DNA of 64,000 nt from Polyangiaceae bacterium (GCA_027009115.1 JALVDI010000386.1:6700-70699), one strand, 5' to 3'. Shown: positions 1,013 to 52,565, counted from the first letter of the stretch. Made by a program: numbers and translations. Notes: generated by a model from the letters alone, not told the origin.

Positions 1013-1972
1013 ATGGCTAGAGGCGGTTACCGCGGCGAGGCGTTTCCATGGGGGGCGGTCAAGCCCGAGCGGCGAGCTGAGAAGGTGCGCGCGATGCTCG
1101 AGGCCGGCGACCGGGCCGGCCTGTGGGCCCTGGTCAAGCACCACCTCATGACCTGGGGGCGTGCGGGCGCGGCGACGAGCCCCCACACCCTGCGCACCTA
1201 CCGCACCGGGCTGAACAGCTTCCTCGACTACCTGGCCGAGCTCGGGCTCGAGGGGGAGCTGCTGGCCGAGGCGGTCCTCGATCCGTCGGAGGACCTGGGG
1301 GCTGAGTACCTGCGCCACCTGCAGCGTCACCACGCCCCCGCCACCGTGAACAACCGCCGGGCGGCGGCGCGGGCCTTCTACCGGGCGCTGCAATGGGCCC
1401 GGGCCACGCAGACCAACCCCTTCGACCTGGCCCCGACCGTGCGGGACCCGACGCCGCGCCACGAGAAGCGCCGCCCCTACGAGGACGACGAAATCAAGCG
1501 GTTGACCCGAGAAGCGGACCCGCACGAGCGGGTCATGGTGCTGCTCGGGGCCCAGGGCGGGCTGCGCATCTCGGAGGCGGCGCGGCTTCGCTGGGACGAC
1601 GTGGACCTCGGGGCGAAGCGGATCACGATCCGGGACGGCAAGGGAGGGAAGACGGCGAGCGTCCTCATCCCCAAGGGGCTGCGCGCCGCGCTCCGCGCCC
1701 TTCGCAAGGCCGAACCCGAGGGCGAGTACGTGCTGCCCTGGCGTACGCCTGCGAGCATCCGGCGCCGGCTCAAAGCGCTGTGCGACCGGGCCGGCGTACG
1801 CTACAAGGGCTACCACGCCCTGCGGCACTACTGCGGCACCTACATCTACCAGCAGACGGGCGACCTGAACACGGCCGCCCGCCAGCTGCGGCACTCCCAG
1901 CTGCAGACGACCGCGATCTACGCAAAGTGGGCTGAGGAGATGGCGCGCGAGCTCCTGGACGGCTGGGACTAG
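1013..1972 (+). CDS. int: Tyrosine recombinase / integrase (XerC/D-Cre-like)
   Basis: 319 aa. The N-terminal SAM-like core-binding region is followed by a catalytic domain with LLGAQGGLRISEAARLRWDD (Arg I), HALRHYCGTY (H-x-x-R) and the C-terminal TTAIYAKW tyrosine. Confidence 0.9.
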   Translation: MARGGYRGEAFPWGAVKPERRAEKVRAMLEAGDRAGLWALVKHHLMTWGRAGAATSPHTLRTYRTGLNSFLDYLAELGLEGELLAEAVLDPSEDLGAEYLRHLQRHHAPATVNNRRAAARAFYRALQWARATQTNPFDLAPTVRDPTPRHEKRRPYEDDEIKRLTREADPHERVMVLLGAQGGLRISEAARLRWDDVDLGAKRITIRDGKGGKTASVLIPKGLRAALRALRKAEPEGEYVLPWRTPASIRRRLKALCDRAGVRYKGYHALRHYCGTYIYQQTGDLNTAARQLRHSQLQTTAIYAKWAEEMARELLDGWD

Positions 1973-2305: not shown

Positions 2306-3106
2306 TCAGTTCTGCAGCTTGTGGGCGGGGAACTCGAGCCCGTACTTCTTGACCCGCGGCGGGGCCTTGGGGAAGTCGGGGCCGATCTTGCCGCCGTTGG
2401 CGTGGAGGTGGTCGCTGACCTGCTTCATGTACGCCACGCCCTCACGCTTGACGGCCTCGCGCTCGTGCGCGGGCACCAGCTTCCGCAGGTTGTCGTCCTT
2501 GTAGAAGTTGTCGTGGGCGTGGTCGGCCCAGACGTTCTGCCAGGGGTGCCGCAGCTGCACCTCGAGCCGCTGCCCCTTGTGCCCGATGCCGTTGAAGTGC
2601 ACCGAGCGGTAGCCGTCGCGCGAGCCGTCGTGCACCTCGTGCTCCAGCACCTTGAGGTGGGGGTGGGGGTTGTCCATCAGGCTCTTGAGGCGGCGGTGGG
2701 CCTCCTCGAAGTGGGCCGGGTCGTGCACGGTCACGCGCAGGCCCACGGTATCGCCCAGGCGGTTGAAGTGGCGCGGCTGCTTGCCCGGGCGCCCCATCTT
2801 CTCCGCGACCTTGTACGGCTCCTTGATGCGGCCGCCGATCTGCACGTTCAGCCCCTGCAGCACCTTTTCCAGGTGCGCCTTGGCGCGGTCGTGGGCCTCT
2901 TCGGCGATCGGATGCAGGTGCTCGGAGATGTGCTGCTGGACTTCCGGCGCGGTGTGCGGCACCCAGCGGCGCCCGCTGGGGGTCTTCACCCGCACCATCA
3001 TCCGGCCGCTGGGAAGCACGCGCATGGCGCTCGCGCCCTGGGCCTTGGCGAGGAGCGAGAGGGCCAGCTCGACGAGCGAAAAGGAAGACGCTAGGGTGCG
3101 ATCCAT
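2306..3106 (-). CDS. RelA/SpoT-domain protein (small alarmone synthetase / toxSAS-like nucleotide pyrophosphokinase)
   Basis: 266 aa. The ordered motifs RIKEPYKVAEKM, LGDTVGLRVTV, DGYRSVHFN and LEVQLRHPWQNVWADHAHDNFYK match the RSH synthetase-domain signature (RxKxxxSxxxK, DxxGxR, GYRSxH, EhQhRTxxQxxWAxxxHxxxYK). Confidence 0.7.
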   Translation of the reverse strand: MDRTLASSFSLVELALSLLAKAQGASAMRVLPSGRMMVRVKTPSGRRWVPHTAPEVQQHISEHLHPIAEEAHDRAKAHLEKVLQGLNVQIGGRIKEPYKVAEKMGRPGKQPRHFNRLGDTVGLRVTVHDPAHFEEAHRRLKSLMDNPHPHLKVLEHEVHDGSRDGYRSVHFNGIGHKGQRLEVQLRHPWQNVWADHAHDNFYKDDNLRKLVPAHEREAVKREGVAYMKQVSDHLHANGGKIGPDFPKAPPRVKKYGLEFPAHKLQN

Positions 3107-3138
3107 GGCCGCACCCTAGCGTCGGGGACGGTGGGTCG

Positions 3139-3504
3139 TTACGCTCCGACGGCGTTGGCCGGCCCCATGTCGGGGTCGTAGAGCACGTAACCCTCGCCGG
3201 ACGGCCAGTAGCTGTGCCCCTGGTAACGCTCGCCCCAGAGCGTCTTCTGCTCGGCGTGGTGCAGCGCGGCCAGGAAGAGCGACCACTCGTCGGGGTAGAG
3301 CTGTTCGAGCCGGGCCACGGTCTCCGGCTCGTCGTGGGGGTGGGGGAGATGCACCGACGGCAGCGTCTCCGCGTCCGTTTCCCGGCGCAGCCAGCGCTTC
3401 AGCGGCCACCAGTACATGCCGTAGGCCTTGTAGCTGCCAGGATCCCGCTGGAGCAGCTGCACCACCCCGCTCAGGGCTTCACGGTCCACCTTGCGCTTGC
3501 TCAT
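3139..3504 (-). CDS. Hypothetical protein (121 aa)
   Basis: ATGA overlap with the stop of the giant gene at 3501-3504. Trp/Tyr-rich, non-degenerate sequence. No domain recognised. Confidence 0.6.
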   Translation of the reverse strand: MSKRKVDREALSGVVQLLQRDPGSYKAYGMYWWPLKRWLRRETDAETLPSVHLPHPHDEPETVARLEQLYPDEWSLFLAALHHAEQKTLWGERYQGHSYWPSGEGYVLYDPDMGPANAVGA

Positions 3505-6500
3505 CGCGTCCTCCCCGTCATTTTATGGTAAAGCTCCACGAGCGAGGCCTTCACCAGGTACTCGGCCTGCTCGGGGCGCGGTATCGCGCGCCAATGCCGC
3601 TTGCCCAGCACCCGCTCGGCGTAGAAGGGCAGCGCACCGAGGGCGTCGTAGCCCAGGTCGCGCTCGCCGTGGTGTTTCCGCCACAGCTCGATGTCCTCGG
3701 GGGTGTTGGTGAGCAGCCGCTCGCCCTCTTCAAGCGGGATGCCGGGCTTGGCGTACGAGGCGGTGCGGTGCTCGGGGACGCCCTCGCGGTTGACGACCCA
3801 GGCCCCGATGCCGCCCCGGTCCTGCTTGGCCCACTCCTTGAGCGCTTCCTGGATCCGGTCGTGGTGCCGGCGCACCACGTCGGGGTGCACCTTCTGCAAG
3901 CCGGTGACGCCCACGTGCCGCAGCCGCTGCGCCAGCTCCTGCCCCAGGGTTTCGTCGTCCACCCGCGGGCGCGCGAAGATGTTGCCCAGCTCGGCCACGT
4001 CCTCGATCTTGTAGCTCGAGGGCTTGGGCTCGGAGCCGTAGCGCTGCAGCGGCACCAGCGGGGCGATCTGCATCGTCTTGGTGACGGGGCTGACCGAGAG
4101 GATGCGGAAGTGCCGCACGCCGCCGTCCTTGGTGTGCTGCTCGATGTGGCCGCCCTCCACGAAGACCTGGCCCGACGGGGCGATCACGAAGGGACGGCCC
4201 TCGCGGATCGCGTCCAGCTGGTCCTTGCTCACCTGCTCGTTGCGCTCGAGGTCGGACATGCGCGCCCGCCACTCGCCCTCGAGGCGCTTGAGCTTGCGGC
4301 TGCGCTCCTCCAGGCGCCGGTTCCACACGGCCACCTTCTCGGGGCTCCCCTCGGCGTGCGCCTTCTCCAGGTTGGCCTGCGCCTGAGCGACCAGGCCGCG
4401 CTGCTTCTGGACGGAGTGGTGCAGGATGCTCGCCTGCTGCAGCTTCTGGACGGTGGCCTGCCACGCGGCGGCCTTGGCCTCCTCGAGGCGCTTTTTCTTC
4501 TGCTTCTCCAGGATCGCCCGCACGTCGTCGGGGTTGTCGGCCGTCTGCATGAGCATCTGGGTGTAGGGGTCGTTCTCCGGGTCCATGGCGTCGGCGTTGC
4601 GGGCGCGCTCCTCGGTGCTGTTCCACAGGATGTCGGTCCAGCCCTTCTTACCGAGCATGGTGCCGTAGGTCATGGCGTCCACGGAGCCGCGCGCCAGCAG
4701 CACGTGGTTGCGCACCTTCTCCTGGGTGTTGCCCTGCCGTACGGCGCGGCCCAGGCGCTGCCAGTAGGTGCCCGGGTCCCAGGGGATGTCCAGGTGCACC
4801 ATGTCGGTCGTGCCCGTCTGCAGGTTGAACCCCTCGCCGATGACCCCGGTGGAGCCGATGACCACGCGGATCTTGCCGGCCTTGTAGGCGGCCTCGATGT
4901 CGGCGCGGGCGGCCGAGCTCTTGGCCGTCTTCGAGGTGACGACGGCGATCTGGTCTTCGGGCACGCCCGCCTCGATGAGGTGCTGCTTAAGCCGGGCGTA
5001 GGCGTTGGTGCGGCTCTCCTCGAGGTGCTTGGCGACCAGCTTCCGCAGCTTGGCGGTGGTCATGCCCTCATGGGGGAGCTTGTTGCGCTTGGCGTACTCG
5101 CGCAGGGCGTCCTCGCCCATGTCCTCGGCGGGGTTCTCGTCCATGGACGACTGCCCCAGGTCCATGAACATGACCACCTTCCCGCCCTCGCTGAGCGCCT
5201 GTTTGGCGATCTCGCCCGCCTTCTGGAAGCGCGGGTTGGGCAGGTGCCCCAGGCGCTCGGGGTCGTAGACCGCGGGGTCGAGGGTGAGGAAACGCATGCG
5301 CGCCAGGTAGGAGAAGAAGTGCTCGTCGCCTTCGGCTTCGCGGTTGGCCGCGGCGTGCTGGGCGGCGGCGGCCAGGGCGCGGTACTCCGTGTGCTGCTCG
5401 GGGTGCATCTCGAAGATGTGCTCGTGGTCCTCGCGCTCGGGGATCTTGAGACCCACCTCCTGCGCGGTGCGCCGGAAGATGTAGCGGTTCATCAGTCCCC
5501 GAAGCTCCCCCAGGTTCTTGAACCCGAGGACGGCGGTCCGCACCTCCACGCCGCCGGGCGTGGCCACCAGGGCATTGCCGATGTCCGTGTAGCGGCTGAT
5601 GAACGCCTCCGGGGTGGGCGCGATGCGGTCTACGGCGTCGGTGACGTAGCGCAGCATGTTGTAGACCTCGAGCGGCGAGTTTTTGGTCGGGGTGGCCGTG
5701 AGGGCGTAGATCCCGCTGCCGTCGTTGTGGTCGCGCACGTGCCGCGCCTTGATCAGCATGTCGAGCGCGCGCTGCGACTCCGAGCCGGCCCCCAAAAACT
5801 TCGGCGACTCGCCGAAGACCCGCGGCGCCGCATGCAGGTTCTTGTAGGCGTGGTGCTCGTCCGAGATGAGCGCGTCCACGCCCAGGTCCTCCCAATGCAC
5901 CGCCCGCACCTGGTCGCCGAAGAGCTTGGCCGTGGCCTTCTCCATGGCCTGCTGCATCTTGCCCACCCAGTCGCGCTCGCTGCGCTTCTTGCGCTTGTCG
6001 TGCTGCGCCTCCTCGAACTCGCGGGCGCGCACCACGTCGTCCTTGACGTAGCGCTCGAGGGTTTCGGGCCGTACCGGGATGGCACCGAACTTGTCGCGGG
6101 TGATGAGCACGCGGGTGATGCTGGGGTCCGCGGCGAGGCGCGCGAGCTTGGTGGCCACGTCCTTCATTTTGTCCTCGCGCCAGACCTTCTTCTTGGGATC
6201 AAAGGTCTCGCCGATGACCATCACGTGGTCCCCGGGGACGCCCCGGGCCACGTCCGCCCGGGACAGGGCGCGCAGCGCCGCGCGGAAGCGCTCGGGCTCG
6301 AGCCCGCTGGCCTTCTCGGCGTCGTTCAGGTTGATGAGGTCGCGCTCCTTGAGCAGATCGTAGACCTTCTGCGCGTCCGCGGCGGTCTGCTCGTCGGTGC
6401 CCTCGGGGACGGCGAACTCGCCCGTGATGTACCAGCGGCCGCTACCGAGCTCGGCGTAGCTGTTGCGCCAGTTGCCCATCAGGCTCTTGGGCATGACGTG

Positions 6501-9500
6501 CATGACCCGCTTGGCCCGGCCTTCGTGCTCGAGGAGCTGGGCTAGCGCGAGGCCGGCGTACGTCTTCCCGAGACCCACGTCGAGGGCCATGATCGAGTTG
6601 CCGGTGTCGAGGGCGTGCCGCACCGCCTCCGTCTGGAAGTCATGCAGCGGCGGACCCTTCCAGTCGGGGATGTCCAGCGCCTCGTTGCTGTACTTGGGCG
6701 GGATGTAGCTGTTGTAGGTGCGGTTGTAGCCCTCTTCGAGCTCTTCGCGGTAGTCGGAGCTGGCCGCCCACGCCTTGAACTGGTCGGCCCACTCCTGCTC
6801 CTGCTTGCGGGCCTCCTCGCGGTACTGCGCCTTGAGCGCGTCCAGCTCGGCGCGGGTCATGGTCCTCGTCTGCTCGGCCGTGAGGCGCCGCACCGGGGTG
6901 TCGAAGTTGAGGTACTTGACGAACTCCTTGACGTGGTCGGGGAGACTGTAGCCCTCGGCGTGCTCCACGATGAAGATGCCGGTGTCCGTACGCCGCACAT
7001 TGTACTGGCCGCCCGGGTCCACGACCTCGCCGATGAAGTCGCGCACCACCTCCGGGCGCACGTAGTGGTCGCGGGCCGTGATCTCGACCTCCTCGAGGGG
7101 CTTGCGGGGCAGCTTCTCGCGGAACTTCTTGGCCTGGGCCCGCAGGATCTCGCGTTCGGTGTTCGAGAGGCCCGGGGCCTCGGCGGCCCGCTCCAGCGCC
7201 TCGGAGCGCTCGTACACGTCCCCGACGTAGAACTCGTCGTCGGGAATCCAGCGCCCCGACTCGTCCATGGCGTAGCCGTTCTCGGCCAGCCACTCCATGG
7301 CCTGCGTGGTGCCCCAGCCTTTCCCCGCCAGCACCGAGGCCAAGCGGGTGGGGGTGAGGCGCCGCTGCCGCGCAAGGTGCGCCGCGACGGCGTAGGGGTC
7401 GGTGTAGTCCACCCCCTCGCCGCGCTCGCCCGTGACCGGGTTGAGCAGGTGCTCGGCCACGTCGCCCTTGGGCGTGACGGCGCTGAGCAGGTGGGCGAGG
7501 CTGTGCCGGCGTTTGAGCTCGCCGGCCAAGTGTTGGTGGGGGTTGCCGTACTCCTCCAGGTAGCGCTTCAGGGACTCGACCACCGCCTTACGGCGCGCCT
7601 CGGCGTCGGCCGGGCTGCCGTTGTTGAGCACGTGCACGTACTCGCGCAGCTCGTCGGCGATGCTGACCGCGGCCGCGAGGCGCGGGTCCTCGCCCTGGAT
7701 CGTGTGCCAGCGCCCGTTGCGGAAGACCAGGCGGCCGTCCTCGCTGACCGTCCCCTCCTCGACGCGGCCGCGCTCGAGGTTCGAGGCCGCGCTCGTGGCC
7801 CAGTCGCGGGCCGATGCGTACTCGTCCCCGTAGTGGCGCTCCAGCGCCGCCATGTCCGCCGGCTGTTCGTCGGTGGGGGCCTGGGCCAGGCGCTCGAGCA
7901 GCCCGGGCTCGAGCTCGCCCTCGATCTTCTTGTAGCCGTGGTACGTGGTCTCGCCGCTCCACGTCCCGAAGAGGTGGTCGTCGCGCAGGTGCAGCTTGCC
8001 GTCCAGGAAGTCGCGCGCGGCGTCCGTGAGCACGCCCGCCTTCTCCAGGGCCTCCTCGCCGTGGCGCTGCACCAGGCGCAGGAGGGTCATCCCCTCATCG
8101 TCCGGGCGCTTGCGCACCACCAGCACCACCGGGGGCACCCCCGAGTTGGACTCCTTGAAGACGCTGGAGGGGAGCTGGTAGGCCCCCAGGACCTCCGCCC
8201 GGGCCAAGAGGCGCCGGCGGAAGTCGCGGGTCGAGGGGTTCTCGACGGGTCCCGGGTTGATCAGGTGCACGCCCACGCCGCCGTCCTTGAGGCGGTCCAG
8301 GGAGGCGTCAATGAAATACTGCTCGGCCTTGGCGAGCCACGGCTTGCCCTTGCCGATCAGGCTGCCGCGGATGCCGTAGGGCGGGTTGGCGATCACCGCG
8401 TCGTAGGTGTGCTCCTGCCCTTCGCCCTGGTTGTACTCCTCGAAGGACAGGCCGGGGTAGACCTTGTGCCCCCGGGGCTCGTGCAGCAGCTTGCCGATCT
8501 TGCCCGATACCTCGGAGAGCTCGACGCCGGTCACGCGGGTGCCGTCGGGGGCGGTGTGCAGGAAGACGCCGTTGCCCATCGAGGGCTCGAGCGCGGTCTT
8601 GGGCTGGCCGGCCACGCGGTGCAGCAGGGCCCACATGGCGGCCGCCAGCGGCGCCGGGGTGTAGTGGGCGTTCAGGTCGCCCGTCAGGCCGCCCTCGCCG
8701 GTGTAGGCGGCCAGGACCTGGCGCTCCTCCTCGGTGGGCTCGCGCTTCTCGTCTTCCAGGCGCTCCAGCAGCTCCACGGCGCGCGCGTTGGCCTTGGTGC
8801 GCTGGGCAACCGTGGCCTTGGGCAGCAGCGCGAACCCGAACCGGGGAATACGCTTCAGGATCTCGCGCAGGGGGCGCGCGTAGTTGAGTCCGCGGCCTTC
8901 GGCTTCGGCCTGGGGCGGCTCCTCGGCGGCCGGCTCGGCCTCGGCCTCGGGCTCGGTCTCGGTCGGCTTGGCCTCGGGTTCGGGCTCCGGCTCGGCCTGG
9001 GGTTCGGCCGCTCCGGCTTCCGCCTCGGGCGCGGTCGGCTTGGCCTCGGGTTCGGGCTCCGAGGTGGCCTGGGGCTCGGGTTCGGTTTCCTGCCGGGGCG
9101 CGCTCGGGGCGCTTTCGGGTTCCTCGTCCACGCGGTGCCAGCGCCCGCCCTTGAGGCGGTACGTGTGGGCCCCGTCGGCGAAGACGACCGTCTTCTCGGC
9201 ACCCTCCCGCAGGTGCTGATCGGAAGGGTCGGCCGGCAGCTCCGCGGGGGCCGGTCCCGCGGTGTCGGGCACCGACGGCTCCACCTGCGGCGCGTTCTTG
9301 CCCTCCCAGCGCTCGCGCGGCACTTCATGGTAGAAGTGGTCGGTCAGGTTCTGGGCGAAGACCCGGGCGAACTGGGGGTCGCGTCCCCGCAGCTCGTAGC
9401 CGCGGATCGGGTCGTGCGTCGCCGTCTCCTCCAGCTCGAGGGCGCCGTCGGGAGCCACCTTGTACACCAGCTCGCCGTCGAGGTAGATGTCGCTCATTGG

Positions 9501-10523
9501 GTCGTCGGGGTCGGCGTGGCGGTAGTGGGTGAGGTACAGCCGCGGCGCGCCGTCCCGCCCCGGGTGGCGCTCGATGACCAGCGGCAGGAAGGGCGGGTTG
9601 GGGATGCGCAGGTGGTAGTCGCCGTCCTCGTCCCCCTCGCGCAGGACGTGCTCACGCAGGCCGGCCCGCTCCAGGAACTCCGCCACCGCCTTGGCGTCGG
9701 CGCTCTTCTGGCGGTCGGCGGGGGCGACGGCCGGCCCCGCGTCCTGTTCGGGCTCGGCCGGCTTGGGCGGCTCCAGCTCCCCGCGGCTGGCCAGGCGGGC
9801 CGCGGCCTCGACCTTCTTGGCGAGGGCGCCCGCCGTCTTGATCAGGTTCTCCGAGCCGTGGTCCACCCGTCCCCCGGCGTCGTAGGCGAAGCTGCTCGCG
9901 GCGTACAGGTCCTTCATCGCCGCCTGCAGCTTCACCAGCATGCGCTGCAGGCGCGACAACGGGTCGTTCCCGCGGGGCAGCTTGCGCGGGCGCAGCTTCT
10001 TGCGCTCCCACTTGGGGGCCGCGTTGGAGTCGAAAACGCGCTCCACCTCGCGCTCGAGCTCGTCCAGGGCGGCCTCGGGATCGCGGCGCAGGGTCGCTTC
10101 CCAGTCGTCCGGCGCCGGCCGCTCTTCGGGTTTGGCCTCGGGTTTGGCCTCGGTCTCGGTCGGCTTGGCCTCGGCCTCGGGCTTGGGGGCGGCGGCCTGC
10201 GGCTTCGGCTTCTGCGCGGCCTCCGCCTCGCCGTCCGCCTTCTCCCAGTACGTCTGCGTGTGAACCTTGCCGCTCTTCTCGCGCACCACCTTTTTGACCG
10301 GCTTGAGGTGCGCCTTGTCGTGCCGGCGGTCGAAGAGCGACGGCTGCTCGGGCTGGCGGCCCTGCCCGTCGAAGAGTGCGGGCTGGTCGGGGGGCGGCGC
10401 CTTGCGCCGGCGCGTCCCCGCAGAGCGCCGCGTGCGGCGCGCGGACCGGCTGGGGGCTGGAGGGAGGTTGAAGAGGGCCTGGGCCTGGGCTTTGATGAGG
10501 TCGTAAATCTCGCGTAGGGTCAT
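3501..10523 (-). CDS. Giant (2340 aa) N6-adenine DNA methyltransferase + SNF2-family helicase fusion (P1 DarB-like)
   Basis: Methyltransferase motifs: EPSMGNGVF (motif I) and AVIANPPYG (motif IV; NPPY at nt 8376-8387). Helicase motifs: ALDVGLGKT (nt 6561-6581), SDEHHAYKN, LTATPTKNSP, and FNLQ...HLDIPWDPGTYWQRLGRAVRQGN. The N-terminal third carries PEAKPTETE low-complexity linkers. The long C-terminal part looks coiled-coil. Confidence 0.9.
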   Translation of the reverse strand: MTLREIYDLIKAQAQALFNLPPAPSRSARRTRRSAGTRRRKAPPPDQPALFDGQGRQPEQPSLFDRRHDKAHLKPVKKVVREKSGKVHTQTYWEKADGEAEAAQKPKPQAAAPKPEAEAKPTETEAKPEAKPEERPAPDDWEATLRRDPEAALDELEREVERVFDSNAAPKWERKKLRPRKLPRGNDPLSRLQRMLVKLQAAMKDLYAASSFAYDAGGRVDHGSENLIKTAGALAKKVEAAARLASRGELEPPKPAEPEQDAGPAVAPADRQKSADAKAVAEFLERAGLREHVLREGDEDGDYHLRIPNPPFLPLVIERHPGRDGAPRLYLTHYRHADPDDPMSDIYLDGELVYKVAPDGALELEETATHDPIRGYELRGRDPQFARVFAQNLTDHFYHEVPRERWEGKNAPQVEPSVPDTAGPAPAELPADPSDQHLREGAEKTVVFADGAHTYRLKGGRWHRVDEEPESAPSAPRQETEPEPQATSEPEPEAKPTAPEAEAGAAEPQAEPEPEPEAKPTETEPEAEAEPAAEEPPQAEAEGRGLNYARPLREILKRIPRFGFALLPKATVAQRTKANARAVELLERLEDEKREPTEEERQVLAAYTGEGGLTGDLNAHYTPAPLAAAMWALLHRVAGQPKTALEPSMGNGVFLHTAPDGTRVTGVELSEVSGKIGKLLHEPRGHKVYPGLSFEEYNQGEGQEHTYDAVIANPPYGIRGSLIGKGKPWLAKAEQYFIDASLDRLKDGGVGVHLINPGPVENPSTRDFRRRLLARAEVLGAYQLPSSVFKESNSGVPPVVLVVRKRPDDEGMTLLRLVQRHGEEALEKAGVLTDAARDFLDGKLHLRDDHLFGTWSGETTYHGYKKIEGELEPGLLERLAQAPTDEQPADMAALERHYGDEYASARDWATSAASNLERGRVEEGTVSEDGRLVFRNGRWHTIQGEDPRLAAAVSIADELREYVHVLNNGSPADAEARRKAVVESLKRYLEEYGNPHQHLAGELKRRHSLAHLLSAVTPKGDVAEHLLNPVTGERGEGVDYTDPYAVAAHLARQRRLTPTRLASVLAGKGWGTTQAMEWLAENGYAMDESGRWIPDDEFYVGDVYERSEALERAAEAPGLSNTEREILRAQAKKFREKLPRKPLEEVEITARDHYVRPEVVRDFIGEVVDPGGQYNVRRTDTGIFIVEHAEGYSLPDHVKEFVKYLNFDTPVRRLTAEQTRTMTRAELDALKAQYREEARKQEQEWADQFKAWAASSDYREELEEGYNRTYNSYIPPKYSNEALDIPDWKGPPLHDFQTEAVRHALDTGNSIMALDVGLGKTYAGLALAQLLEHEGRAKRVMHVMPKSLMGNWRNSYAELGSGRWYITGEFAVPEGTDEQTAADAQKVYDLLKERDLINLNDAEKASGLEPERFRAALRALSRADVARGVPGDHVMVIGETFDPKKKVWREDKMKDVATKLARLAADPSITRVLITRDKFGAIPVRPETLERYVKDDVVRAREFEEAQHDKRKKRSERDWVGKMQQAMEKATAKLFGDQVRAVHWEDLGVDALISDEHHAYKNLHAAPRVFGESPKFLGAGSESQRALDMLIKARHVRDHNDGSGIYALTATPTKNSPLEVYNMLRYVTDAVDRIAPTPEAFISRYTDIGNALVATPGGVEVRTAVLGFKNLGELRGLMNRYIFRRTAQEVGLKIPEREDHEHIFEMHPEQHTEYRALAAAAQHAAANREAEGDEHFFSYLARMRFLTLDPAVYDPERLGHLPNPRFQKAGEIAKQALSEGGKVVMFMDLGQSSMDENPAEDMGEDALREYAKRNKLPHEGMTTAKLRKLVAKHLEESRTNAYARLKQHLIEAGVPEDQIAVVTSKTAKSSAARADIEAAYKAGKIRVVIGSTGVIGEGFNLQTGTTDMVHLDIPWDPGTYWQRLGRAVRQGNTQEKVRNHVLLARGSVDAMTYGTMLGKKGWTDILWNSTEERARNADAMDPENDPYTQMLMQTADNPDDVRAILEKQKKKRLEEAKAAAWQATVQKLQQASILHHSVQKQRGLVAQAQANLEKAHAEGSPEKVAVWNRRLEERSRKLKRLEGEWRARMSDLERNEQVSKDQLDAIREGRPFVIAPSGQVFVEGGHIEQHTKDGGVRHFRILSVSPVTKTMQIAPLVPLQRYGSEPKPSSYKIEDVAELGNIFARPRVDDETLGQELAQRLRHVGVTGLQKVHPDVVRRHHDRIQEALKEWAKQDRGGIGAWVVNREGVPEHRTASYAKPGIPLEEGERLLTNTPEDIELWRKHHGERDLGYDALGALPFYAERVLGKRHWRAIPRPEQAEYLVKASLVELYHKMTGRTR
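8953..8978. repeat. 26-nt exact repeat (second copy 10149..10174) inside Pro/Glu/Ala/Lys low-complexity linkers of the giant gene
   Basis: ctcggtctcggtcggcttggcctcgg occurs at both positions. It encodes EAKPTETE within two PEAKP-rich linker regions (about nt 8884-9110 and 10110-10229). Confidence 0.7.
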
Positions 10524-10753
10524 TCGGTCGCCTCCACCGCGCGGGCCGTCCCGCGCTCGAGCACGTGGCTCAGGTACTCGTCTTCCAGCGCGCTTCCCCG
10601 CGGGGCGCGGATGCCGTCGGCGGCCGCGCGGGCGGCCTCCTCGTGGCGCTCGGCCACGCGACGGGCGGCACCGCGCGCTGCGGCCTCCTCCACGTGGGCG
10701 CGCGCGATCTCGGCGCTGATCTCGGCCAGCAAGCGCTTGGCGTCGTCCTTCAT
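10520..10753 (-). CDS. Hypothetical small helical protein (77 aa) between the two giant genes
   Basis: Track ORF trimmed to ATG 10751-10753 (MKDDAKRLLAEISAE...), which has an AAGGTG SD 7 nt upstream. ATGA overlap with the giant gene start at 10520-10523. Confidence 0.55.
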   Translation of the reverse strand: MKDDAKRLLAEISAEIARAHVEEAAARGAARRVAERHEEAARAAADGIRAPRGSALEDEYLSHVLERGTARAVEATE

Positions 10754-10785
10754 GGTGCGCACCTTATCCGCCGTGGTGGTCAGTC

Positions 10786-13700
10786 CTACCCGAAAAGCGT
10801 TCCCTGCTGCGCCGCGGGGTTCGGCGCCGGCGGGGGCGGGGGCGTTGGATCGTCGTCGTCGTCGCGCTCAGGGCGGGACAGGCCGGCCAGCTGCAGCTGC
10901 AGCGCGAGGCCGGTGTCGTCCATGTGTTCGTACGGCCCCTGGAAGATCTGCCCCAGGAGGCGCTTGCGCTCGAGGCGTTCCAGGTTGGCGCGGTCGTGGT
11001 CGGTGTCCGTCATGAGGGTGTGGATCTCGATCGCCTTCTTCTGCCCGAGGCGGTCAATCCGCGCCGAGCGCTGCTCCCACGTCTTGTGCGTCATGGGCAG
11101 GTCGTAGTGCACCAGCCACTCGCCGCGGTGCTGCAGGTTCGCGCCGGTCGCGCCGGCGTCGGAGGCGACGATGATGTCCACCTCGCCGCGGTCGAAGCGC
11201 TGGCGGATGCGCGCCTTGTCCTGGGCGCTGTGCCCCCCGTGCAGGACGGCGACCTTGTGCCCGGCCCGCTCGAGGGCGGCGGCGATCTCGGCCACCGCCT
11301 TGCGGTTGTGGGCGAAGACCACGCCGCCCTTCCCGCGCCGCTGCTCCGCGAGCGAGAGCAGGTGCTGGATCTTGGCGTTGCGGTCGGCGGGGGCCTCGTT
11401 GATCACGCGCGCCTTCGCGGCCTCATGCAGCACCCCGAGGCTGCGGTTGAGTTTCTGGGCGACCTGCTCGTGCTGGGCCTCGGGGACGCCCTCGAAGCTG
11501 CGGGGCGAAAGGGCCCGCAAGGCCTCCAGGTCCACGTCGCCGCGGTCGCGGGCGCGCACGGCGCGCTGGTAGGCGGCGCGCACCTCTTCCAGCTGCGCCC
11601 GCTGCTCCGGGTGCAGCGGGATCGGGGCGTGCCCGCTGGGGGTGTCGCCGCGGGTGCCGTCCGCGCCCCAGACGACGCGCTTGGTCGTCCCCGAGGGCAC
11701 CACGTCGTGGTAGACGTAGCGGTCGGCCAGCCGCTTCAGCGCCTCACGTGCGGTCAGCGCGTCCACGCCGTAGCGGCGCCGGAACTCGGCCGCGTCGCCG
11801 AAGCGCTTGGGGTCGAGCTTCTTGAGCCAGTCGCCGATCTCGGAGGCGTCGTTCTTGACCGGGCTCCCGGTCATCAGGGTGCCGTACGGCGACAGGCTCA
11901 TCGCGGTGTCGAGCACGGCCGTGAGCAGCGACTCCGCCTTGCCCTGGCGGTTCAGGGCGTCGTGGGCCTCGTCCACGGCGACGTAATGCAGGGGGATCCC
12001 GTGGGCCTCCAGGGCCTCACGCATGAGGCGCTGGCGCTCCGGCAGGTCGGCCTCGAGGAAGCGGTCCTTGAACGCCTCGAGGTCCTCCCCGTGGTGCTCC
12101 GCCATCAGCTTGAGCATGTCGTCGCGGAAGGCCTGGTGGGTAACGGCCACCATGTGCACGTCGGGGGTGGCGTAGGCGGCCCGGCGCTCTTCGTGCGTGG
12201 CCTCGCGCGCGTGCCAGCGGAAGCGGCCGGGCTCGAGCACCCGGGCCATCTCCTCGCCGAACTGGTCGCGCACGATCGAGGGCACCACGAACAGGCCCTT
12301 CTTGGCCTCGCCGCGGTGGTGGAGCTCGGTGAAGGCCCCGATCGCCACCGAGGTCTTGCCGCTCCCCGTCCCCAGGAAGGCGGCGAGCTTGCGGCCTTCG
12401 ATAATGGCCTTTATCGCCCGCTGCTGCTTCACGTACTTGGTGCCCTTGCCCATGGTCACGGGGTACATCTGCACCGGGCTCATGCCCGCGTGGACGCTGC
12501 CGGCAACCTCCGGCATGAGGGCCGCCAGCCGCTTCTCGACGGCGGGGGGCAGGGCGTGCCGCTCGAGGTGCGGCACCGGGGCCTCGGGCTCGACCGCCTC
12601 GTCGCCGGCGTTGGCGAAGAGGCTGGCCTGCGCCATGCGCGCGGCGCGCTCTTCCTCCTTCTTCTTGCGCCACGCCTCGAGCAGCGACCCCTTCCCGCCC
12701 ATGTACGCGAAGCGGCCGCCCTGACGCTCCCGCAGGCTGTGCTGCTGGCGGGCGATCTCGTCCTTGAAGCGGCGGTACCCCTCGGGGTCGCGCACCGCCC
12801 ACAGGTGCTCGCCCCAGCGGTTCGCCTCCTTCGACAGGCGTAGGGGCTGGCCGGTGAGCTTGGCGTGGTAGTGGGCGTAACGGCTCGCCAGCGACCCCCT
12901 CATGTGCTCCTGCACCGCCTCGTAGGCGCGCTGCGGCCCGCCGATGCCCTCCACGAACTTGTTCCACTCGACGAGCTCCGCCTGGTCGCCCAGCGCTTCG
13001 GTGGCCACCCGCTGGCGGTCGCGGTGCCACTTCACCCAGTCCGGGTTCAAGGGGAGGTCGCTCGCCAGCCGGTCGGGGTAGGGGTTGCCCCGCAGGTTGG
13101 CCTTGCCGTCCTCGGTGAGGGTCACGCTGCCGTCGTCGTTTTCCACGTAGTCGCCGCGGCCCAGCCCCATCGCGCGCAAAGTCTCGGCGCGGAGGTCGGG
13201 GTCGGCGGCCACATGGTCACGGAACCGCAGCGTGATGGGGGCGTCGGGGTCTACGGGGGCCGGCTCTCCGAAGAGGCCGCCGTCCTGGGGCGCGCCCCAC
13301 TTCTCCGGCATGGGGTGCTTGGCCTCGTACTCGGCCAGGGCCTTGCGCACCGCGTTCTTGCGCGCGGCCAGCTCCTCGGGGCTCTTGCCCAGGATCTCGG
13401 TCAGGTAGTAGTGCCGCAGCGCACGCTGGTCGCGGTGGTCGAGCTCGCCCAGGGGCTTGAGGGCCACCTGCGTGCGCGGATCGGCGAGCACGCTCAGGTA
13501 GAGGGCCTTGCGGACCTCCGGGGTGTCGCCCACCGTCTGGCCGTAGAAGTCGGCCTCCCCGGGGTGCTCGCGCTCCACGAAGTCACGGGCCAGGCCGCGC
13601 AGCCGCTCATGGAGCTCGGGGTGCTTCTCCTGCAGGCGGTCGTAGTCCACCGGGATCGGTACCCGGTACTCCTCGCCCTTGCGGTTCTTGCGCACCTCCT

Positions 13701-16023
13701 CGCCCGCCCACGTAGGCAGCAGCTCCTCCAGGTGGCGGTCGTACTCCTCCATCTTCTCCGGGGGCACCCAGTCACGGATGAAGCTGCTCGAGGTGAGCAG
13801 GCGCTTGACCTCCGCCGGGGTCCACCCGTCGGCCAGGCGGCTGGCCACGGCCTCCTCCAACCCCGCGCGCACGTCGTCGCGGAAGTTGGGAGCGCGGGCG
13901 AGGCGGCGGGCCTTGGGGGGCTCCTGCTGGTCGAAGGCGCTGGCCGGGTAGCGGGCGAAGCCCGCCGGCAGCCAGTCCTCTTCGTCGTGGCGGCCGGCCT
14001 TGATCGCCTTGACCCGCTCGGCGGTCTCGCGTTCGGCGGGGTCGGCGTCGGGGGTCAGCCGGTCCATGCCCTGCCGGTTGAGCCGCACCCTGAAGCGGTC
14101 GTCGTCCCACTCGTAGGTGTAGTCGCCAGGCTCCAGGCCCAGGGCGCGCAGGGCCGGGATCACGTCGCGGGCGCTCTTGGAGAACTCCAGCTCGAGGTGG
14201 TCGGCCGGGGGCTGGCTGAGGGCGAGGTTGAGCGCCGCGGACGCCTCCAGCTTCCCGAGGGCGGTACCGAGGTGCCGGTGGGCCTCTTCGAGCAGGCGCC
14301 GCTTCCGGCGCACCAGGTCCATGACCGCCGCGGCGTCGGTGGTCGAGGTGATCGCCGGGATCTCGATCGCACGCGCGGCCTCGAGGGCCTTGGTGCCCCG
14401 CTCCATCGCCTCCTTGAGCATGGGCTCGAGGGTGCGGTCGTGGTGTTCGGCCAGGGCCTTGCGGACCTTGTCCAGCTCCTCCTCGCTCAGACCCCGGCGC
14501 AGCGCGTGCGCCGTGAGCTTGACCCCCGCGTCGAGACCCAGGGCATCGAGGGCGAGCCGGTCCAGGGTGTCGCGCCCGAGGACCGCGAGCGCCACGTTGC
14601 TCAGGTGGGCGTAGGCCCCGGCGGCGTGGTGCTTGTACAGGGCCTTGCGCAACTCGCCGTAGCTCCACCCGGGCTCGGCCGCCCGGTTCACGGTGTCCAG
14701 GAAGCTGCGGGTCAGGTCTTCCTTCGCCAGGTCGTCCACCCGGGCCGCGATCTCGCGCGCCAGGTCGGGGTCCACCTCCTCCGTGTGCACGAGCAAGGGG
14801 CTGCCGTCTTCACGCGCGTGGGCCTCCTCGAGGGCGCGCACCTCTTCCTCGCTGGCGTCGGGGTCGTGACCCAGCAGCGCGCGCCGCTTGGCGCGTTGCA
14901 GCTTGCGCAGTTGGCGCGCCGCGGCAAGGAAGGCACGCACGTCCTCGGCGTGCTGGCGCAGCTCCTCCGGCGTGGGGGCCTCCGGCTTGGGGGCGGCCTC
15001 CTCGAGGGCGGCGCCCGCCTCCTGCGCGAGGGGCTGGGCCGCGCGCATGCGCTCCCGGGCGGCGAGCACCCGGGCCTGGACCTCTGGCGCGTACTGCGCG
15101 AGCCGCGCCTGGAACGCCTCTTCGGCCTCGCGCTCGAACTCGTCCTGCGTGAGGCCCCGCTCCTCGGCCAGCTGGCGCATGGAGCCCCCGTAACCGCGGC
15201 TGGCCACCGGAGCCGTCTCCGCCCCGGGGATCTCGTCGGGTTCGATCTGCCCCCGCTCGCCCAGAACCGCGCTGCGTAGGTCGGGGTCGCGCACCAGGTG
15301 CTTGAGGACCTGGCGCTCGATCCGCTTGACGGCCTGGGTCGCGGCGCGAACGTGGCGCGCGGTGGCCAGGCCGGCGGCCAGGGAGGCCGCGTCGCCCTCG
15401 CCGGCCGCCTGCTGCGCGATGGTGCGCAGTTGCTCACGGGTCTCGTCGTCGAGCATGCGCTCGAGGTGCGGGTTTCCGGTGATCCGGGCGGCCGCGGCGA
15501 GCGCGGCCCGGTGCGCGGCCTCGATGTGCTCCTGCAGCCGCTGGGCCAGCTCCTTGCGCCGCTGGCGCTCCTCGGGGGGCACGTCCGGCTTGGGAGCGCG
15601 CTCTTGCTGGCGGCCGCGTCCGATCCGCGTCAGGCGCAACCCGTGCAAACCCTTGGGCCCCGAGACGACGTGGGCCGATCCGTCGGGGTTGACCTTGATC
15701 TTGACGTGGACGTAGTCGGGGTGGTCGGGTCCGTGGGGCTTCAGCGTGATCCAGCGCTCGTTGGGCCCTAGGTCGCCCCCGTCCGCCTTGTGCACCAGCT
15801 CGGCGGGCTCGAGCCAAAACACCAGCGCGAAGCCGTTTTCGTCGTAAGCCAGGTAGTAGCCCTTGGCCAGCGCACCCTTGGCCCGGGCAATGGCGATCCG
15901 TATCGCCTCTCCCTCGTCGTACCCCTCGCGAAGCAGCGCGTTGGCGATCCGCACCGCCCGGCGCCGCACGGGGGGCGCGAGGTGCTTCATGGCATCGGGA
16001 AAGCGTTCTGCGGTCCAGGGCAT
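10786..16023 (-). CDS. Giant (1745 aa) ChaB-domain + SNF2/DEAD-like helicase protein
   Basis: Track ORF 10786..16170 trimmed to ATG 16021-16023, which has a GGTGGGGG SD and does not overlap the upstream gene. The N-terminus MPWTAERFPDAMKHLAPPVRRRAVRIANALL...AIRIAIARAK is ChaB-like. The C-terminal helicase core has LGTGSGKTSVA, VAVDEAHDALN, IIVASDAGATGANLQ and WEQRSARIDRLGQKK (about nt 10990-12480). Confidence 0.85.
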   Translation of the reverse strand: MPWTAERFPDAMKHLAPPVRRRAVRIANALLREGYDEGEAIRIAIARAKGALAKGYYLAYDENGFALVFWLEPAELVHKADGGDLGPNERWITLKPHGPDHPDYVHVKIKVNPDGSAHVVSGPKGLHGLRLTRIGRGRQQERAPKPDVPPEERQRRKELAQRLQEHIEAAHRAALAAAARITGNPHLERMLDDETREQLRTIAQQAAGEGDAASLAAGLATARHVRAATQAVKRIERQVLKHLVRDPDLRSAVLGERGQIEPDEIPGAETAPVASRGYGGSMRQLAEERGLTQDEFEREAEEAFQARLAQYAPEVQARVLAARERMRAAQPLAQEAGAALEEAAPKPEAPTPEELRQHAEDVRAFLAAARQLRKLQRAKRRALLGHDPDASEEEVRALEEAHAREDGSPLLVHTEEVDPDLAREIAARVDDLAKEDLTRSFLDTVNRAAEPGWSYGELRKALYKHHAAGAYAHLSNVALAVLGRDTLDRLALDALGLDAGVKLTAHALRRGLSEEELDKVRKALAEHHDRTLEPMLKEAMERGTKALEAARAIEIPAITSTTDAAAVMDLVRRKRRLLEEAHRHLGTALGKLEASAALNLALSQPPADHLELEFSKSARDVIPALRALGLEPGDYTYEWDDDRFRVRLNRQGMDRLTPDADPAERETAERVKAIKAGRHDEEDWLPAGFARYPASAFDQQEPPKARRLARAPNFRDDVRAGLEEAVASRLADGWTPAEVKRLLTSSSFIRDWVPPEKMEEYDRHLEELLPTWAGEEVRKNRKGEEYRVPIPVDYDRLQEKHPELHERLRGLARDFVEREHPGEADFYGQTVGDTPEVRKALYLSVLADPRTQVALKPLGELDHRDQRALRHYYLTEILGKSPEELAARKNAVRKALAEYEAKHPMPEKWGAPQDGGLFGEPAPVDPDAPITLRFRDHVAADPDLRAETLRAMGLGRGDYVENDDGSVTLTEDGKANLRGNPYPDRLASDLPLNPDWVKWHRDRQRVATEALGDQAELVEWNKFVEGIGGPQRAYEAVQEHMRGSLASRYAHYHAKLTGQPLRLSKEANRWGEHLWAVRDPEGYRRFKDEIARQQHSLRERQGGRFAYMGGKGSLLEAWRKKKEEERAARMAQASLFANAGDEAVEPEAPVPHLERHALPPAVEKRLAALMPEVAGSVHAGMSPVQMYPVTMGKGTKYVKQQRAIKAIIEGRKLAAFLGTGSGKTSVAIGAFTELHHRGEAKKGLFVVPSIVRDQFGEEMARVLEPGRFRWHAREATHEERRAAYATPDVHMVAVTHQAFRDDMLKLMAEHHGEDLEAFKDRFLEADLPERQRLMREALEAHGIPLHYVAVDEAHDALNRQGKAESLLTAVLDTAMSLSPYGTLMTGSPVKNDASEIGDWLKKLDPKRFGDAAEFRRRYGVDALTAREALKRLADRYVYHDVVPSGTTKRVVWGADGTRGDTPSGHAPIPLHPEQRAQLEEVRAAYQRAVRARDRGDVDLEALRALSPRSFEGVPEAQHEQVAQKLNRSLGVLHEAAKARVINEAPADRNAKIQHLLSLAEQRRGKGGVVFAHNRKAVAEIAAALERAGHKVAVLHGGHSAQDKARIRQRFDRGEVDIIVASDAGATGANLQHRGEWLVHYDLPMTHKTWEQRSARIDRLGQKKAIEIHTLMTDTDHDRANLERLERKRLLGQIFQGPYEHMDDTGLALQLQLAGLSRPERDDDDDPTPPPPPAPNPAAQQGTLFG

Positions 16024-16082
16024 CGCCCCCACCGTAGCGGCGGGGGCGGTTGGGGTGCGGGCCCGGTCGGGGCGTCGTCGCG

Positions 16083-16847
16083 CTACGGCTGCCCAGCCAG
16101 CAGCGAGGCCCAGAAGTCCGCGATCGGGATGCGCCGGGTGACCCGGCCCGAGCCGTCGCACACGTGGCACTTCACCTCTTCGGGCTCGGGCTGGTCGTAG
16201 CCGTGCTCGGACCAGAACCTACGTACGAGCTCGTTCACCTGCTCCACGGTGAGCCCGTGACGCTCCTTTGGGGGGTGGGCGGCGTAGAAGGCCTCCCACA
16301 GGGGATGCGCGACGATCCCCTGCCCCCGGCACTCGTCGCACCTGGACTTGGTGACGACGTGGGTGACGGTGCCGCCGTAGGCGTCCTCGACCGCGCCCTT
16401 GACGGCTCGGACCGCGTCGTGCACGTCGCAGGCGTCTTCGTCGCGCGCTTGTCGCTCGAGCTCGGCCAGGGTCAGCCCATGCCGGCGCGCGAGCCAGTTG
16501 GCGAGTTTGCGGGGCATGGGGTTCCGGGTTTTTTCCGGGTCCACGAGCCCCGGGAGGTCGTCGAGGTCATAGGCGCCGAAAAAGTCCTCAAGCGGCTCGT
16601 TGAAGCTGGTCTCGCAACCGTACCCCACCTGGAGGTTCCAATCCACGAGCTCAGCGCAGCGGCCGCAGATCTTGTACGTGCTCCACTTGTGGCCGTCCTC
16701 GTCCAGAACGTCGTGGCGGTAGTAGGTGGCCTTCGGGGGAATCACGCCGCCGCACGAGCTGCACGTATGCTGCCGGCGCGCCTTCAGGCGCTGTTCCTTG
16801 TGGAGCCGTACGTCGCAGTTATCCGTGTAGACCGTCACAGTAGCCAT
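16083..16847 (-). CDS. Cys-rich protein with zinc-ribbon and DnaJ-type CxxCxGxG motifs
   Basis: Trimmed to MATVTVY (ATG 16847) behind an AAGGGGGGGG SD. It contains CSSCGG...CGRC plus CDECRGQG and CHVCDGSG. Confidence 0.6.
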   Translation of the reverse strand: MATVTVYTDNCDVRLHKEQRLKARRQHTCSSCGGVIPPKATYYRHDVLDEDGHKWSTYKICGRCAELVDWNLQVGYGCETSFNEPLEDFFGAYDLDDLPGLVDPEKTRNPMPRKLANWLARRHGLTLAELERQARDEDACDVHDAVRAVKGAVEDAYGGTVTHVVTKSRCDECRGQGIVAHPLWEAFYAAHPPKERHGLTVEQVNELVRRFWSEHGYDQPEPEEVKCHVCDGSGRVTRRIPIADFWASLLAGQP

Positions 16848-16861
16848 CCGTGCCCCCCCCT

Positions 16862-17227
16862 TCACGCCAGCGGCCGCCTCGGATCGCGCCCCCCGGCCGA
16901 TTCGGCCAGCGCCTCCGCCATCATCCCGGCGGTTTTCAGCAGCATCGAGGCGAACCGCAGCGCCTTAACCCGCGTCTCATCGCACGGGTCGTCACCCCCG
17001 AGCTCGTCCGCGGCGTCCAAGAACGCTGCGGAGGCGCGCGTGTAGGCTTCGGCCGCCCCGCGCATGAAGATCTCCAGCGTGCCAAGGTGGTCGCCCAGAA
17101 CAACGCCGGCGGGCACGAGCTCAGCGGCCACGTCCACCAGCTTCTCGGCGACCTCCTGCTCCATGCCACCGTGCTTGAGAATGTTGACGAGCGACGCCTT
17201 GCTTGCGCTCCCCTGTTCGGTCGTCAC
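16862..17227 (-). CDS. Hypothetical protein (121 aa)
   Basis: ATGA overlap with upstream gene 17224..18237. Acidic, helical composition. Confidence 0.55.
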   Translation of the reverse strand: MTTEQGSASKASLVNILKHGGMEQEVAEKLVDVAAELVPAGVVLGDHLGTLEIFMRGAAEAYTRASAAFLDAADELGGDDPCDETRVKALRFASMLLKTAGMMAEALAESAGGRDPRRPLA

Positions 17228-18237: not shown

Positions 18238-18249
18238 GATGCCCCCCTT

Positions 18250-21373: not shown

Positions 21374-21437
21374 ACGTCCTCCTTTCCGTTGGTCTGCGTG
21401 TGCTGGGGGTGGACGGTGGGGGCGCGGCCGGGCGGCG

Positions 21438-22213: not shown

Positions 22214-22233
22214 GGCAACCTCCCACGTGTCCA

Positions 22234-22262: not shown

Positions 22263-22280
22263 GCTGTACACCCTGTCTGT

Positions 22281-25713: not shown

Positions 25714-25743
25714 ACCGGACACCCTAGGTGCTGCGGCCGTCGG

Positions 25744-52555: not shown

Positions 52556-52565
52556 GCGCTACTCC

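Follow-up and report, generated by a model that had tools for sequence, protein, structure and literature searches.

A predicted virion-delivered module of two giant ATPases with small partner genes in a Lalka-like temperate phage element

The DNA considered here, referred to below as the window, is a stretch of 64,000 nucleotides from an assembly assigned to a Polyangiaceae bacterium (GCA_027009115.1 JALVDI010000386.1:6700-70699). Two giant ATPases are encoded side by side near its left end: a DarB-like methyltransferase-SNF2 protein and a homolog of the large virionic helicase (Lvh) of Thermus phage Lalka27a, each followed by a small gene. In the best explanation, the region forms the distal part of a late operon associated with the head genes, and the element carrying it is a temperate Lalka-like myophage or prophage of the Deinococcus-Thermus group; the two giants, each paired with a small gene, are probably packaged into the capsid and co-injected with the genome. 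Sequence analysis establishes the homology of these proteins, the integrity of their motifs, the order of their genes and the recurrence of the set in other phages.

Two giant ATPases and their small partner genes

The genes and domains concerned are as follows (aa, amino acids).

3139..3504 (-): Ulx-like gene, 121 aa
3501..10523 (-): DarB-like methyltransferase-SNF2 protein, 2340 aa, assigned by homology to P1 DarB
4524..6647 (-): SNF2-type ATPase core of the DarB-like protein (Pfam SNF2-rel_dom, Helicase_C)
7929..8726 (-): N6-adenine methyltransferase domain (motif I EPSMGNGVF, motif IV NPPY)
9507..9689 (-): DUF6908 in the N-terminal extension of the DarB-like protein (PF21849; 1.6e-6 in the whole protein, 4e-8 in the isolated segment)
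10520..10753 (-): gene for the small helical partner of 77 aa (80 aa when read from an upstream GTG), next downstream of the helicase gene
10786..16023 (-): Lvh-like giant helicase, 1745 aa, comprising an N-terminal head, a small beta domain, a helical region of ~1000 aa and a C-terminal SF2/SNF2-like ATPase
10924..12456 (-): helicase core of the Lvh-like protein, aa ~1190-1700 (GTGSGKT, DEAH, TGSP, QRSARIDRLGQ)
15874..16023 (-): head domain of the Lvh-like protein, aa 1-50, a lineage-specific two-helix module

An earlier note on this DNA had described a 2340-aa open reading frame (ORF) carrying methyltransferase motifs and a complete SNF2 core. That ORF exists, and its catalytic motifs (EPSMGNGVF at residue 646, NPPY at 713, DVGLGKT at 1315, DEHH at 1555, TATP at 1609 and QRLGRAVRQG at 1922) are all intact and line up with those of P1 DarB, Lalka8 and PHB04. 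Homology to P1 DarB is strong (phmmer, 7e-99) and extends over three co-linear tblastn segments of 29-34% identity that take in the methyltransferase and both ATPase lobes, with residues 47-325 of P1 DarB being 34% identical to the methyltransferase of the window. Consistent with this assignment are matches to PHROG_11801, 'DNA methyltransferase' (3e-223), and PHROG_10089, 'DarB-like antirestriction' (1e-83). Among deposited phages, tblastn identifies the 'DarB-like anti-restriction proteins' of Thermus phages Lalka8, Lalka27a and Lalka27b as the closest relatives (52% identity), and the same search also recovers P1 DarB. The earlier note had named SNF2-rel_dom, Helicase_C, N6_Mtase and ChaB as profiles to search; the first two match the DarB-like protein in Pfam (3.7e-12 and 4.1e-10), N6_Mtase is borderline (6.5e-4, just under the cut-off), and ChaB, expected in the helicase, is unmatched.

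P1 DarB and the window protein are both single polypeptides of more than 2000 aa in which an N6-adenine methyltransferase precedes an SNF2-type ATPase, and in both genomes a ulx-like gene lies directly downstream and the darB-type gene lies near the portal gene. Differences are found at both termini. The methylase begins at residue ~575 in the window and at residue 47 in P1 DarB, such that a ~560-aa N-terminal extension, composed of Q-x-x-L-F peptides, low-complexity linkers rich in Pro, Glu and Ala, and the DUF6908 that P1 DarB lacks, stands where P1 has a 30-aa capsid-targeting sequence. The P1-type sequence is absent from the window protein, the two N-termini being unrelated and the window carrying a different conserved signature. 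Additionally, motif IV has the canonical form NPPY in the window and NVPF in P1 DarB, and the C-terminal 330 aa are lineage-specific. A homolog search with the N-terminal 570 aa returned nothing, the low-complexity linkers probably having swamped the word index. The Ulx-like gene that follows matches PHROG_1629, 'Ulx-like anti-restriction' (3.4e-9), encodes a protein 44% identical to Lalka8_1, and is translationally coupled to the DarB-like gene, with an overlap of 4 nt between its start and the DarB-like stop. The DarB-like gene of a Deinococcus cellulosilyticus contig (L007; gene at 17442-24524) is interrupted precisely at helicase motif II (DEGH|C...HN|C) by an intein bearing a DUF559/Vsr-like endonuclease, and two TIR-domain genes (15027-16308) lie between it and the helicase gene.

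The 1745-aa ORF and the 77-aa gene that the earlier note had also reported exist as well, and the motifs of a second helicase core are present. A tblastn search of deposited phages aligns the 1745-aa protein with the Lalka 'putative helicase', Lvh, at 57% identity over 98% of its length. Homology is thus full-length, taking in the C-terminal SF2 helicase as well as the long N-terminal part, which is non-enzymatic; more divergent homologs are encoded by Thermus phages Cumys and phiMa, by Bordetella phage PHB04 and by Morganella phage Mecenats66. The core motif columns are invariant in the family alignment. The SNF2 label that had been given to this second helicase holds in part: SNF2-rel_dom scores above its cut-off (28.1 versus 24.9 bits), with Helicase_C (2.2e-14), DEAD and ResIII also matching in Pfam, yet DEAD and ResIII score as well or better, and the PDB matches of the ATPase C-lobe are generic SF2 proteins (RecQ, DEAD-box proteins, RapA, ISWI). 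Motif VI, QRSARIDRLGQ, is SNF2-like, and the family assignment is accordingly only partly secure, less so than that of the DarB-like protein. An AlphaFold2 model of residues 1-1190, built with 16 homologs (mean predicted local distance difference test score, pLDDT, 76; predicted template modelling score, pTM, 0.43), comprises the two-helix head, a low-confidence small beta domain, long helical bundles and small alpha/beta inserts. Foldseek finds no significant match for these 1190 residues in the PDB (best E 0.59) or in BFVD, and the ~1100-aa N-terminal region matches no named domain of the polyvalent proteins (Iyer et al. 2017). One helicase homolog, P0016, carries an intein (PF14890).

The head of the helicase had been described as ChaB-like, an identity that was rejected because no Pfam, PDB, profile or hhalign test supports it. 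Specifically, the ChaB family PF06150 matches neither the isolated N-terminus at E<=1, nor five heads at E<=10, nor 40 family members; the solved ChaB structure 1SG7 is not matched by the head as a single sequence or as a profile in a PDB search; and hhalign aligns the head with E. coli ChaB co-linearly but weakly (pairwise E 0.02, probability 2-4%). The head is instead an autonomous module of a large, unnamed family of small stand-alone proteins. It occurs in 4 of 15 aligned helicase homologs, all of the Thermus-phage lineage, and the other members begin at a conserved core, ERWITLKPHGPDH...NPDGTAHV. In a single-sequence scan of genome contigs, the only match was a 63-aa stand-alone homolog in a proteobacterial metagenome-assembled genome (L004:10001-10190), and an exhaustive HMMER search gathered 456 representative clusters, mostly proteins of 55-130 aa, with the consensus MPWxxxxYPxSMKNLxPxVRxKAIEIANALLxEGYDEGxAIxIAIAxAK. 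A 51-aa viral protein superposes on the head model at 1.8 Å. In longer family members the head is followed by DUF2188, a domain upstream of which family members in cellular genomes are often fused.

The 77-aa protein encoded after the helicase gene is 42% identical over 43 aa to Lalka8_41, the product of the gene that follows Lvh. An iterative profile hidden Markov model (HMM) was seeded on PHB04 gp023, with the window, Lalka8 and an 80.7-kb contig of ~80% nucleotide identity to the window (L005) excluded, and was searched against the ORF that comes next after the helicase gene at every locus, so that its E-values relate to a database of ~80 sequences. It matches the window protein at 2.6e-7, that of L005 at 2.6e-5 and Lalka8_41 at 4.3e-5. 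In all, 36 loci carry a member of this family, with the common motif (D/E)xxYxxLxxERGxL, after the helicase gene. The recovery of these loci, the window among them, defines the giant helicase and the small helical protein as a conserved gene pair, one that parallels DarB-Ulx and is new in this analysis. By analogy with Ulx, the partner may act in incorporation or chaperoning. In another contig (L008:16887-17072), an InPase protein ends in a fused partner-like segment.

A late operon, its relatives and the case for virion delivery

The giants lie in a leftward gene train whose other landmarks are listed here.

23875..25722 (-): portal protein, first recognisable gene of the train (PHROG portal families, 2e-20 and others)
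23300..23878 (-): stand-alone InPase-domain protein, 192 aa (Pfam PF18823, 5e-34)
22281..23303 (-): MuF-like minor head protein, 340 aa (PHROG_115 minor head protein, 2e-11)
3087..3123 (-): terminator-like hairpin directly after the Ulx-like gene, with a 15-bp stem, 10 G-C pairs and a T-rich tail

The Lvh-like gene is thus encoded among structural or late genes, on the same strand and in the same train as portal and MuF, as the earlier note had observed. The portal is 71% identical to that of Lalka8 and the MuF-like protein 47% identical to the Lalka8 minor head protein, its Pfam match to Phage_Mu_F being sub-threshold (8e-4). The stop of the 77-aa gene overlaps the start of the DarB-like gene, as the start of the Ulx-like gene overlaps the DarB-like stop. 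These overlaps, together with the hairpin, indicate that the four genes close a long leftward transcription unit, which starts at the portal gene or earlier. The hairpin also overlaps the annotated start of the next ORF (2306..3106). Since G+C is ~70% across the window, long spurious ORFs are abundant; both giant ORFs, however, have G+C at third codon positions (GC3) of 0.94-0.95, the codon-position signature of true genes, and together they occupy 12.5 kb, or 19.6% of the window, in agreement with the fifth that had been estimated.

A scan of IMG/VR with the helicase family alignment retrieved 79 viral loci, in which neighbours were counted within 10 kb of the helicase gene. The helicase is usually placed between portal/MuF and the prohead protease and co-oriented with the head genes: the protease lies downstream in 53 of the 79 loci (median gap 623 bp) and InPase upstream in 47. 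A DarB-type methyltransferase accompanies the helicase in 36 loci, always on the same strand (30 upstream, 6 downstream), and in 25 of the 45 loci that extend at least 8 kb to either side. The order seen in the window, helicase and then DarB-Ulx, recurs in L005 and in the D. cellulosilyticus contig. This recurrence identifies the two-helicase module as a conserved head-module cassette rather than a peculiarity of the window.

Two groups of relatives are particularly informative. Firstly, the PHB04-like myophages (Bordetella phage vB_BbrM_PHB04 and ~70 IMG/VR contigs) encode homologs of both giants and of both small partners. In PHB04 itself the co-oriented head-module genes run from portal, MuF and InPase through methylase and Ulx to the helicase, small genes, protease and capsid. 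DarB-Ulx usually precedes the helicase in this group and the window is reversed, as are 6 of the 36 loci; identity to the window is 30-40%, and the helicases lack the N-terminal head. Secondly, the Lalka phages share with the window the Ulx-like gene, the small gene after the helicase and the helicase head, yet in Lalka8 the two giant genes are ~30 kb apart, Lvh lying between tail and baseplate genes, whereas in the window the helicase adjoins the DarB-like gene. The window homologs of the Lalka genes that flank Lvh (60911..62314 and 59405..60418) enclose only a 151-aa ORF with an N-terminal signal-peptide-like segment (60446-60901, -), between tail and baseplate genes. With this ORF filling the Lalka Lvh slot, the helicase and its small downstream gene sit elsewhere in the window genome. 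The suggestion that the two-helicase composition was undescribed does not hold, as both proteins have been described in Lalka and their adjacency is present in deposited genomes such as PHB04, where it goes undiscussed. The locus is therefore another DarB-Ulx plus Lvh set, which extends known families and founds none.

Published evidence on homologs bears directly on delivery. In phage P1, DarB and Ulx are head proteins, Ulx 'aids DarB localization', each virion contains ~40 copies of DarB, and the N-terminal 30 residues of DarB suffice for capsid targeting (PMC9024508). Ulx, DarB and DdrB of P1 have been tied to protection against EcoB and EcoK, and packaging needs Hdf and DarA (PMC12810830). 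Homologs of DarB and Ulx were noted in the Lalka phages in 2024 (Viruses), where virion packaging was proposed (PMC11437467). Subsequent mass fingerprinting identified Gp2, the DarB homolog of Lalka27a, as a minor component of purified virions, and the 1715-aa Lvh of the same phage is likewise virion-associated and presumably injected (bioRxiv 10.64898/2026.04.20.719267). As the window giants are 52% and 57% identical to Gp2 and Lvh, both of which are found in virions, virion delivery is supported by homology. Iyer et al. (2017) described a dyad of adenine methylase and SWI2/SNF2 ATPase, with DarB as its archetype, and InPase as a virion-cargo domain (PMC5512222). The window resembles their polyvalent proteins in this dyad, in the InPase encoded alongside and in predicted delivery with the invading DNA, and differs from them in that InPase, helicase and DarB-like protein are separate genes rather than fused modules.

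Packaging in this particular phage, the targets of the giants and the roles of the small proteins are inferred from these parallels, and would fit together as follows. Two giant ATPases, each paired with a small gene (the Lvh-like protein with the 77-aa protein, the DarB-like protein with Ulx), would be loaded into the capsid during prohead assembly, the small proteins presumably helping as Ulx does for P1 DarB, and at infection the DNA would be ejected together with both. The SNF2 motor of the DarB-like protein might then track along the incoming genome, methylating adenines or blocking translocating type I restriction complexes in cis, while the Lvh-like protein could act on the same DNA as a second tracking motor, devoid of a methylase and directed against other host factors. 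The earlier proposal of a virion-delivered anti-restriction module is thus upheld by homology and context as regards delivery; an anti-restriction role is predicted for the DarB-like protein only. The accompanying analogy to MuF-linked cargo is apt insofar as a MuF-like gene is present in the train. It is otherwise loose because the cargo is not fused to MuF: Pfam and PHROG searches detect no fused effector or additional domain in the MuF-like protein, and the giants are separate genes.

Several observations weigh against a capsid-packaged, co-injected module. The argument for packaging here draws on homology and context, and the helicase gene of the Lalka phages lies in a tail/baseplate cluster, such that a capsid location of the helicase is not certain. 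In the window itself, genes of non-structural appearance (HTH, Gp3-like, DUF5131 and zinc-ribbon) separate MuF from the helicase, and neither the protease gene nor the major capsid gene was found, both of which border the module in most relatives. Finally, no homolog of Hdf, DarA, DdrA or DdrB was detected in the window by tblastn or phmmer (E<=1); with the P1 packaging scaffold lacking a detectable counterpart, incorporation must work differently.

It is improbable that the second helicase is instead an ordinary intracellular replication, recombination or transcription helicase, with the DarB-like protein alone as virion cargo. The genome paper of Mecenats66 places the helicase homolog among replication genes, the family PHROG_62 is labelled 'DNA helicase', RecQ and RapA are among its PDB matches, and the window also encodes replication proteins (a beta-clamp, a DnaC-like loader and ParA), and the Q-x-x-L-F motifs discussed below would fit a replisome-associated helicase too. 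Against this stand the Lvh homolog in Lalka27a virions, the position of the gene in most of the 79 loci between portal/MuF and protease/capsid rather than in replication modules, and a 1100-aa non-enzymatic N-terminal region that is atypical of replicative helicases. A literature search found no virion proteomics for PHB04 or Mecenats66.

There is a similarly small chance that the giants serve mainly as an ejection or internalisation machine, pulling the genome or remodelling it for early transcription, with anti-restriction as a side effect. Two DNA translocases would indeed arrive with the DNA, the Lalka phages lack an RNA polymerase and a DNA polymerase of their own, and the helicase C-lobe has RapA-like similarity. 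The absence of a DarB-type gene from about half of the helicase-bearing loci, however, marks that gene as accessory, and darB is reportedly dispensable for P1 on non-restricting hosts, which likewise counts against such a machine. Less probable still is that the pair guards the lysogen as a prophage-encoded system of defence or exclusion resembling DISARM, BREX or type I restriction-modification: combinations of adenine methyltransferase and SNF2 helicase are known in defence systems (PMC5512222), the element is temperate (integrase, ParA) and TIR-domain genes lie between the giants in the D. cellulosilyticus contig, yet P1 DarB and Ulx are the specific homologs, neither a nuclease nor a PLD or specificity subunit was found near the giants, these are co-transcribed with portal and MuF and lie within the head modules of many phages, and the Lalka27a homologs are virion proteins and late genes.

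Q-x-x-L-F peptides and the beta sliding clamp

Disordered termini or linkers of both giants contain Q-x-x-L-F peptides. Together with the 77-aa family, these are what is new here; they match the beta-clamp-binding consensus, and a role in clamp binding is a hypothesis.

10332..10385 (-): two Q-P-x-L-F-D peptides, aa 47-51 and 60-64 of the DarB-like protein, in its disordered N-terminus, with a basic HLKPVKKVVREKSGKVHTQTYWEK segment after them
12616..12630 (-): Q-A-S-L-F peptide inside the helicase, aa 1132-1136, in the linker that leads to its core
10792..10806 (-): Q-G-T-L-F peptide at the C-terminus of the helicase, aa 1740-1744 of 1745, after an acidic/proline-rich tail
35467..36654 (+): phage-encoded beta sliding clamp

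The two copies in the DarB-like protein, QPALFD (47-52) and QPSLFD (60-65), compare with 0.058 expected from shuffles (P = 0.0017), and the other 1700 residues contain none. The disordered N-terminus of DarB-like proteins has between one and three copies, and the composite signature of Q-x-x-L-F followed by a basic segment is also present in Lalka8, in L005, where the second site has the hexameric form QPALPF, in the D. cellulosilyticus protein and in 24 distinct PHB04-like proteins. The N-termini of the latter are nearly invariant (M-I-I-L-F-x-K-S-Q-L-A-L-F-D-x-P-V-H-V-x-x-H-V-R-K-D-G-x-V-V-x-P-H-x-R-I-Q-K, with QLALFD at residues 9-14), and additional QxSLFD, TLDLF or xDMF copies follow downstream. 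P1 DarB has no Q-x-x-L-F copy. The possibility that the signature is a generic signal of all head-module proteins was rejected, as it is confined to DarB-like giants and a few fragments.

In the helicase, the internal peptide lies ~70 residues ahead of Walker A, where the AlphaFold2 model places the end of a helix and then a low-pLDDT linker. Q1132 and L1135 hardly vary; of the 15 homologs, 12 have an aligned Q-x-[AGS]-L-F, and two more, which belong to the Lalka lineage, have QALLL instead. Many family members additionally end in Q-x-[SAG]-L-F-COOH after an acidic run (QLSLF* in Deinococcus, QGTLFG* in the window). A C-terminal Qxx[LM][FLI] is present at 22 of 83 helicase-overlapping ORF ends as compared with 4 of 2022 other ORFs (Fisher P = 9e-29), and copies of the motif are also found at L003, L005, L007 and ~24 other loci. 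Pfam contains no named domain for these conserved terminal peptides.

The bacterial beta-clamp-binding motif is Q-phi-x-[L/M]-[F/L], with QLxLF as its strongest form, and is found in C-terminal tails, disordered N-termini and acidic-flanked loops (PMC11139829). It is therefore conceivable, though doubtful, that both virion-delivered giants dock on the bacterial beta sliding clamp through these peptides, the motif being short and low in information and the window copies having P, G or A at position 2 of the consensus. Literature searches returned no paper linking clamp-type motifs with DarB or with virion helicases. As the main alternative, the same peptides could be capsid-loading signals, the N-terminal copies acting as the N-terminus of DarB does in P1. 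Lalka-lineage proteins have no counterpart of the C-terminal Q-G-T-L-F of the window helicase, and since the Lalka-lineage Lvh is packaged nonetheless, the C-terminal copy is argued not to be a packaging signal. The phage-encoded clamp was rejected as a general partner, given that only the Lalka lineage has one among isolates with the helicase. The window encodes its clamp although the Lalka phages have no recognisable DNA polymerase, and in the D. cellulosilyticus contig the clamp gene (6187-7275) lies within the co-oriented portal-MuF-helicase train.

The surrounding element and its wider meaning

Many further window genes match Lalka8 at 40-72% identity and much of the window is syntenic with Lalka, from which the window is recognised as a diverged Lalka-like temperate element. 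Its remaining features are listed below.

1013..1972 (+): tyrosine integrase
32128-32925 (-): ParA-like partition ATPase
20075..21373 (-): Gp3-like 'recombination directionality factor-like' protein
18928..20106 (-): HTH_17 protein, containing a 213-bp tandem duplication at 19057-19468
17224..18237 (-): DUF5131 protein (1e-73)
16083..16865 (-): Cys-rich zinc-ribbon protein

The last four belong to the genes of non-head type that occupy 16083-22246 (-), between MuF and the helicase. Iteron-like tandem repeats of 22-30 bp (AAAGGGTCTCAGACAGAGAC...) are located at 28433-28558, close to the gene for the DnaC-like loader, and, together with the integrase and ParA, suggest a region of lysogeny or plasmid maintenance and an origin. 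In the tail region (50315-56687, -), three consecutive large ORFs of 746, 713 and 656 aa have no PHROG or Lalka8 match except for a weak tail match, and may be lineage-specific host-range or fibre genes; similar 36-bp tandem repeats lie inside two nearby genes (48229-48331 and 49243-49349). No Cas12r/TnpB homolog was seen in the window, unlike in Lalka.

Annotations mostly list the large 'helicase' under replication, yet it is conserved within the head module of many uncultured myophages, and its annotation should change accordingly. Such a helicase has a small partner of its own and often an adjacent DarB-Ulx cassette, and the ChaB label can be dropped from it. How DarB protects DNA has been a question since the 1980s, and the clamp-like peptides offer a cheap and direct experiment on how injected motors find and hold DNA. 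If the giants do dock on the clamp, the clamp of the host, or that of the phage itself, would keep the injected anti-defence motors attached to DNA or replisomes, a logic like that of DNMT1 and PCNA applied to a phage anti-restriction methylase, and one that would provide a concrete handle on the mechanism of DarB.

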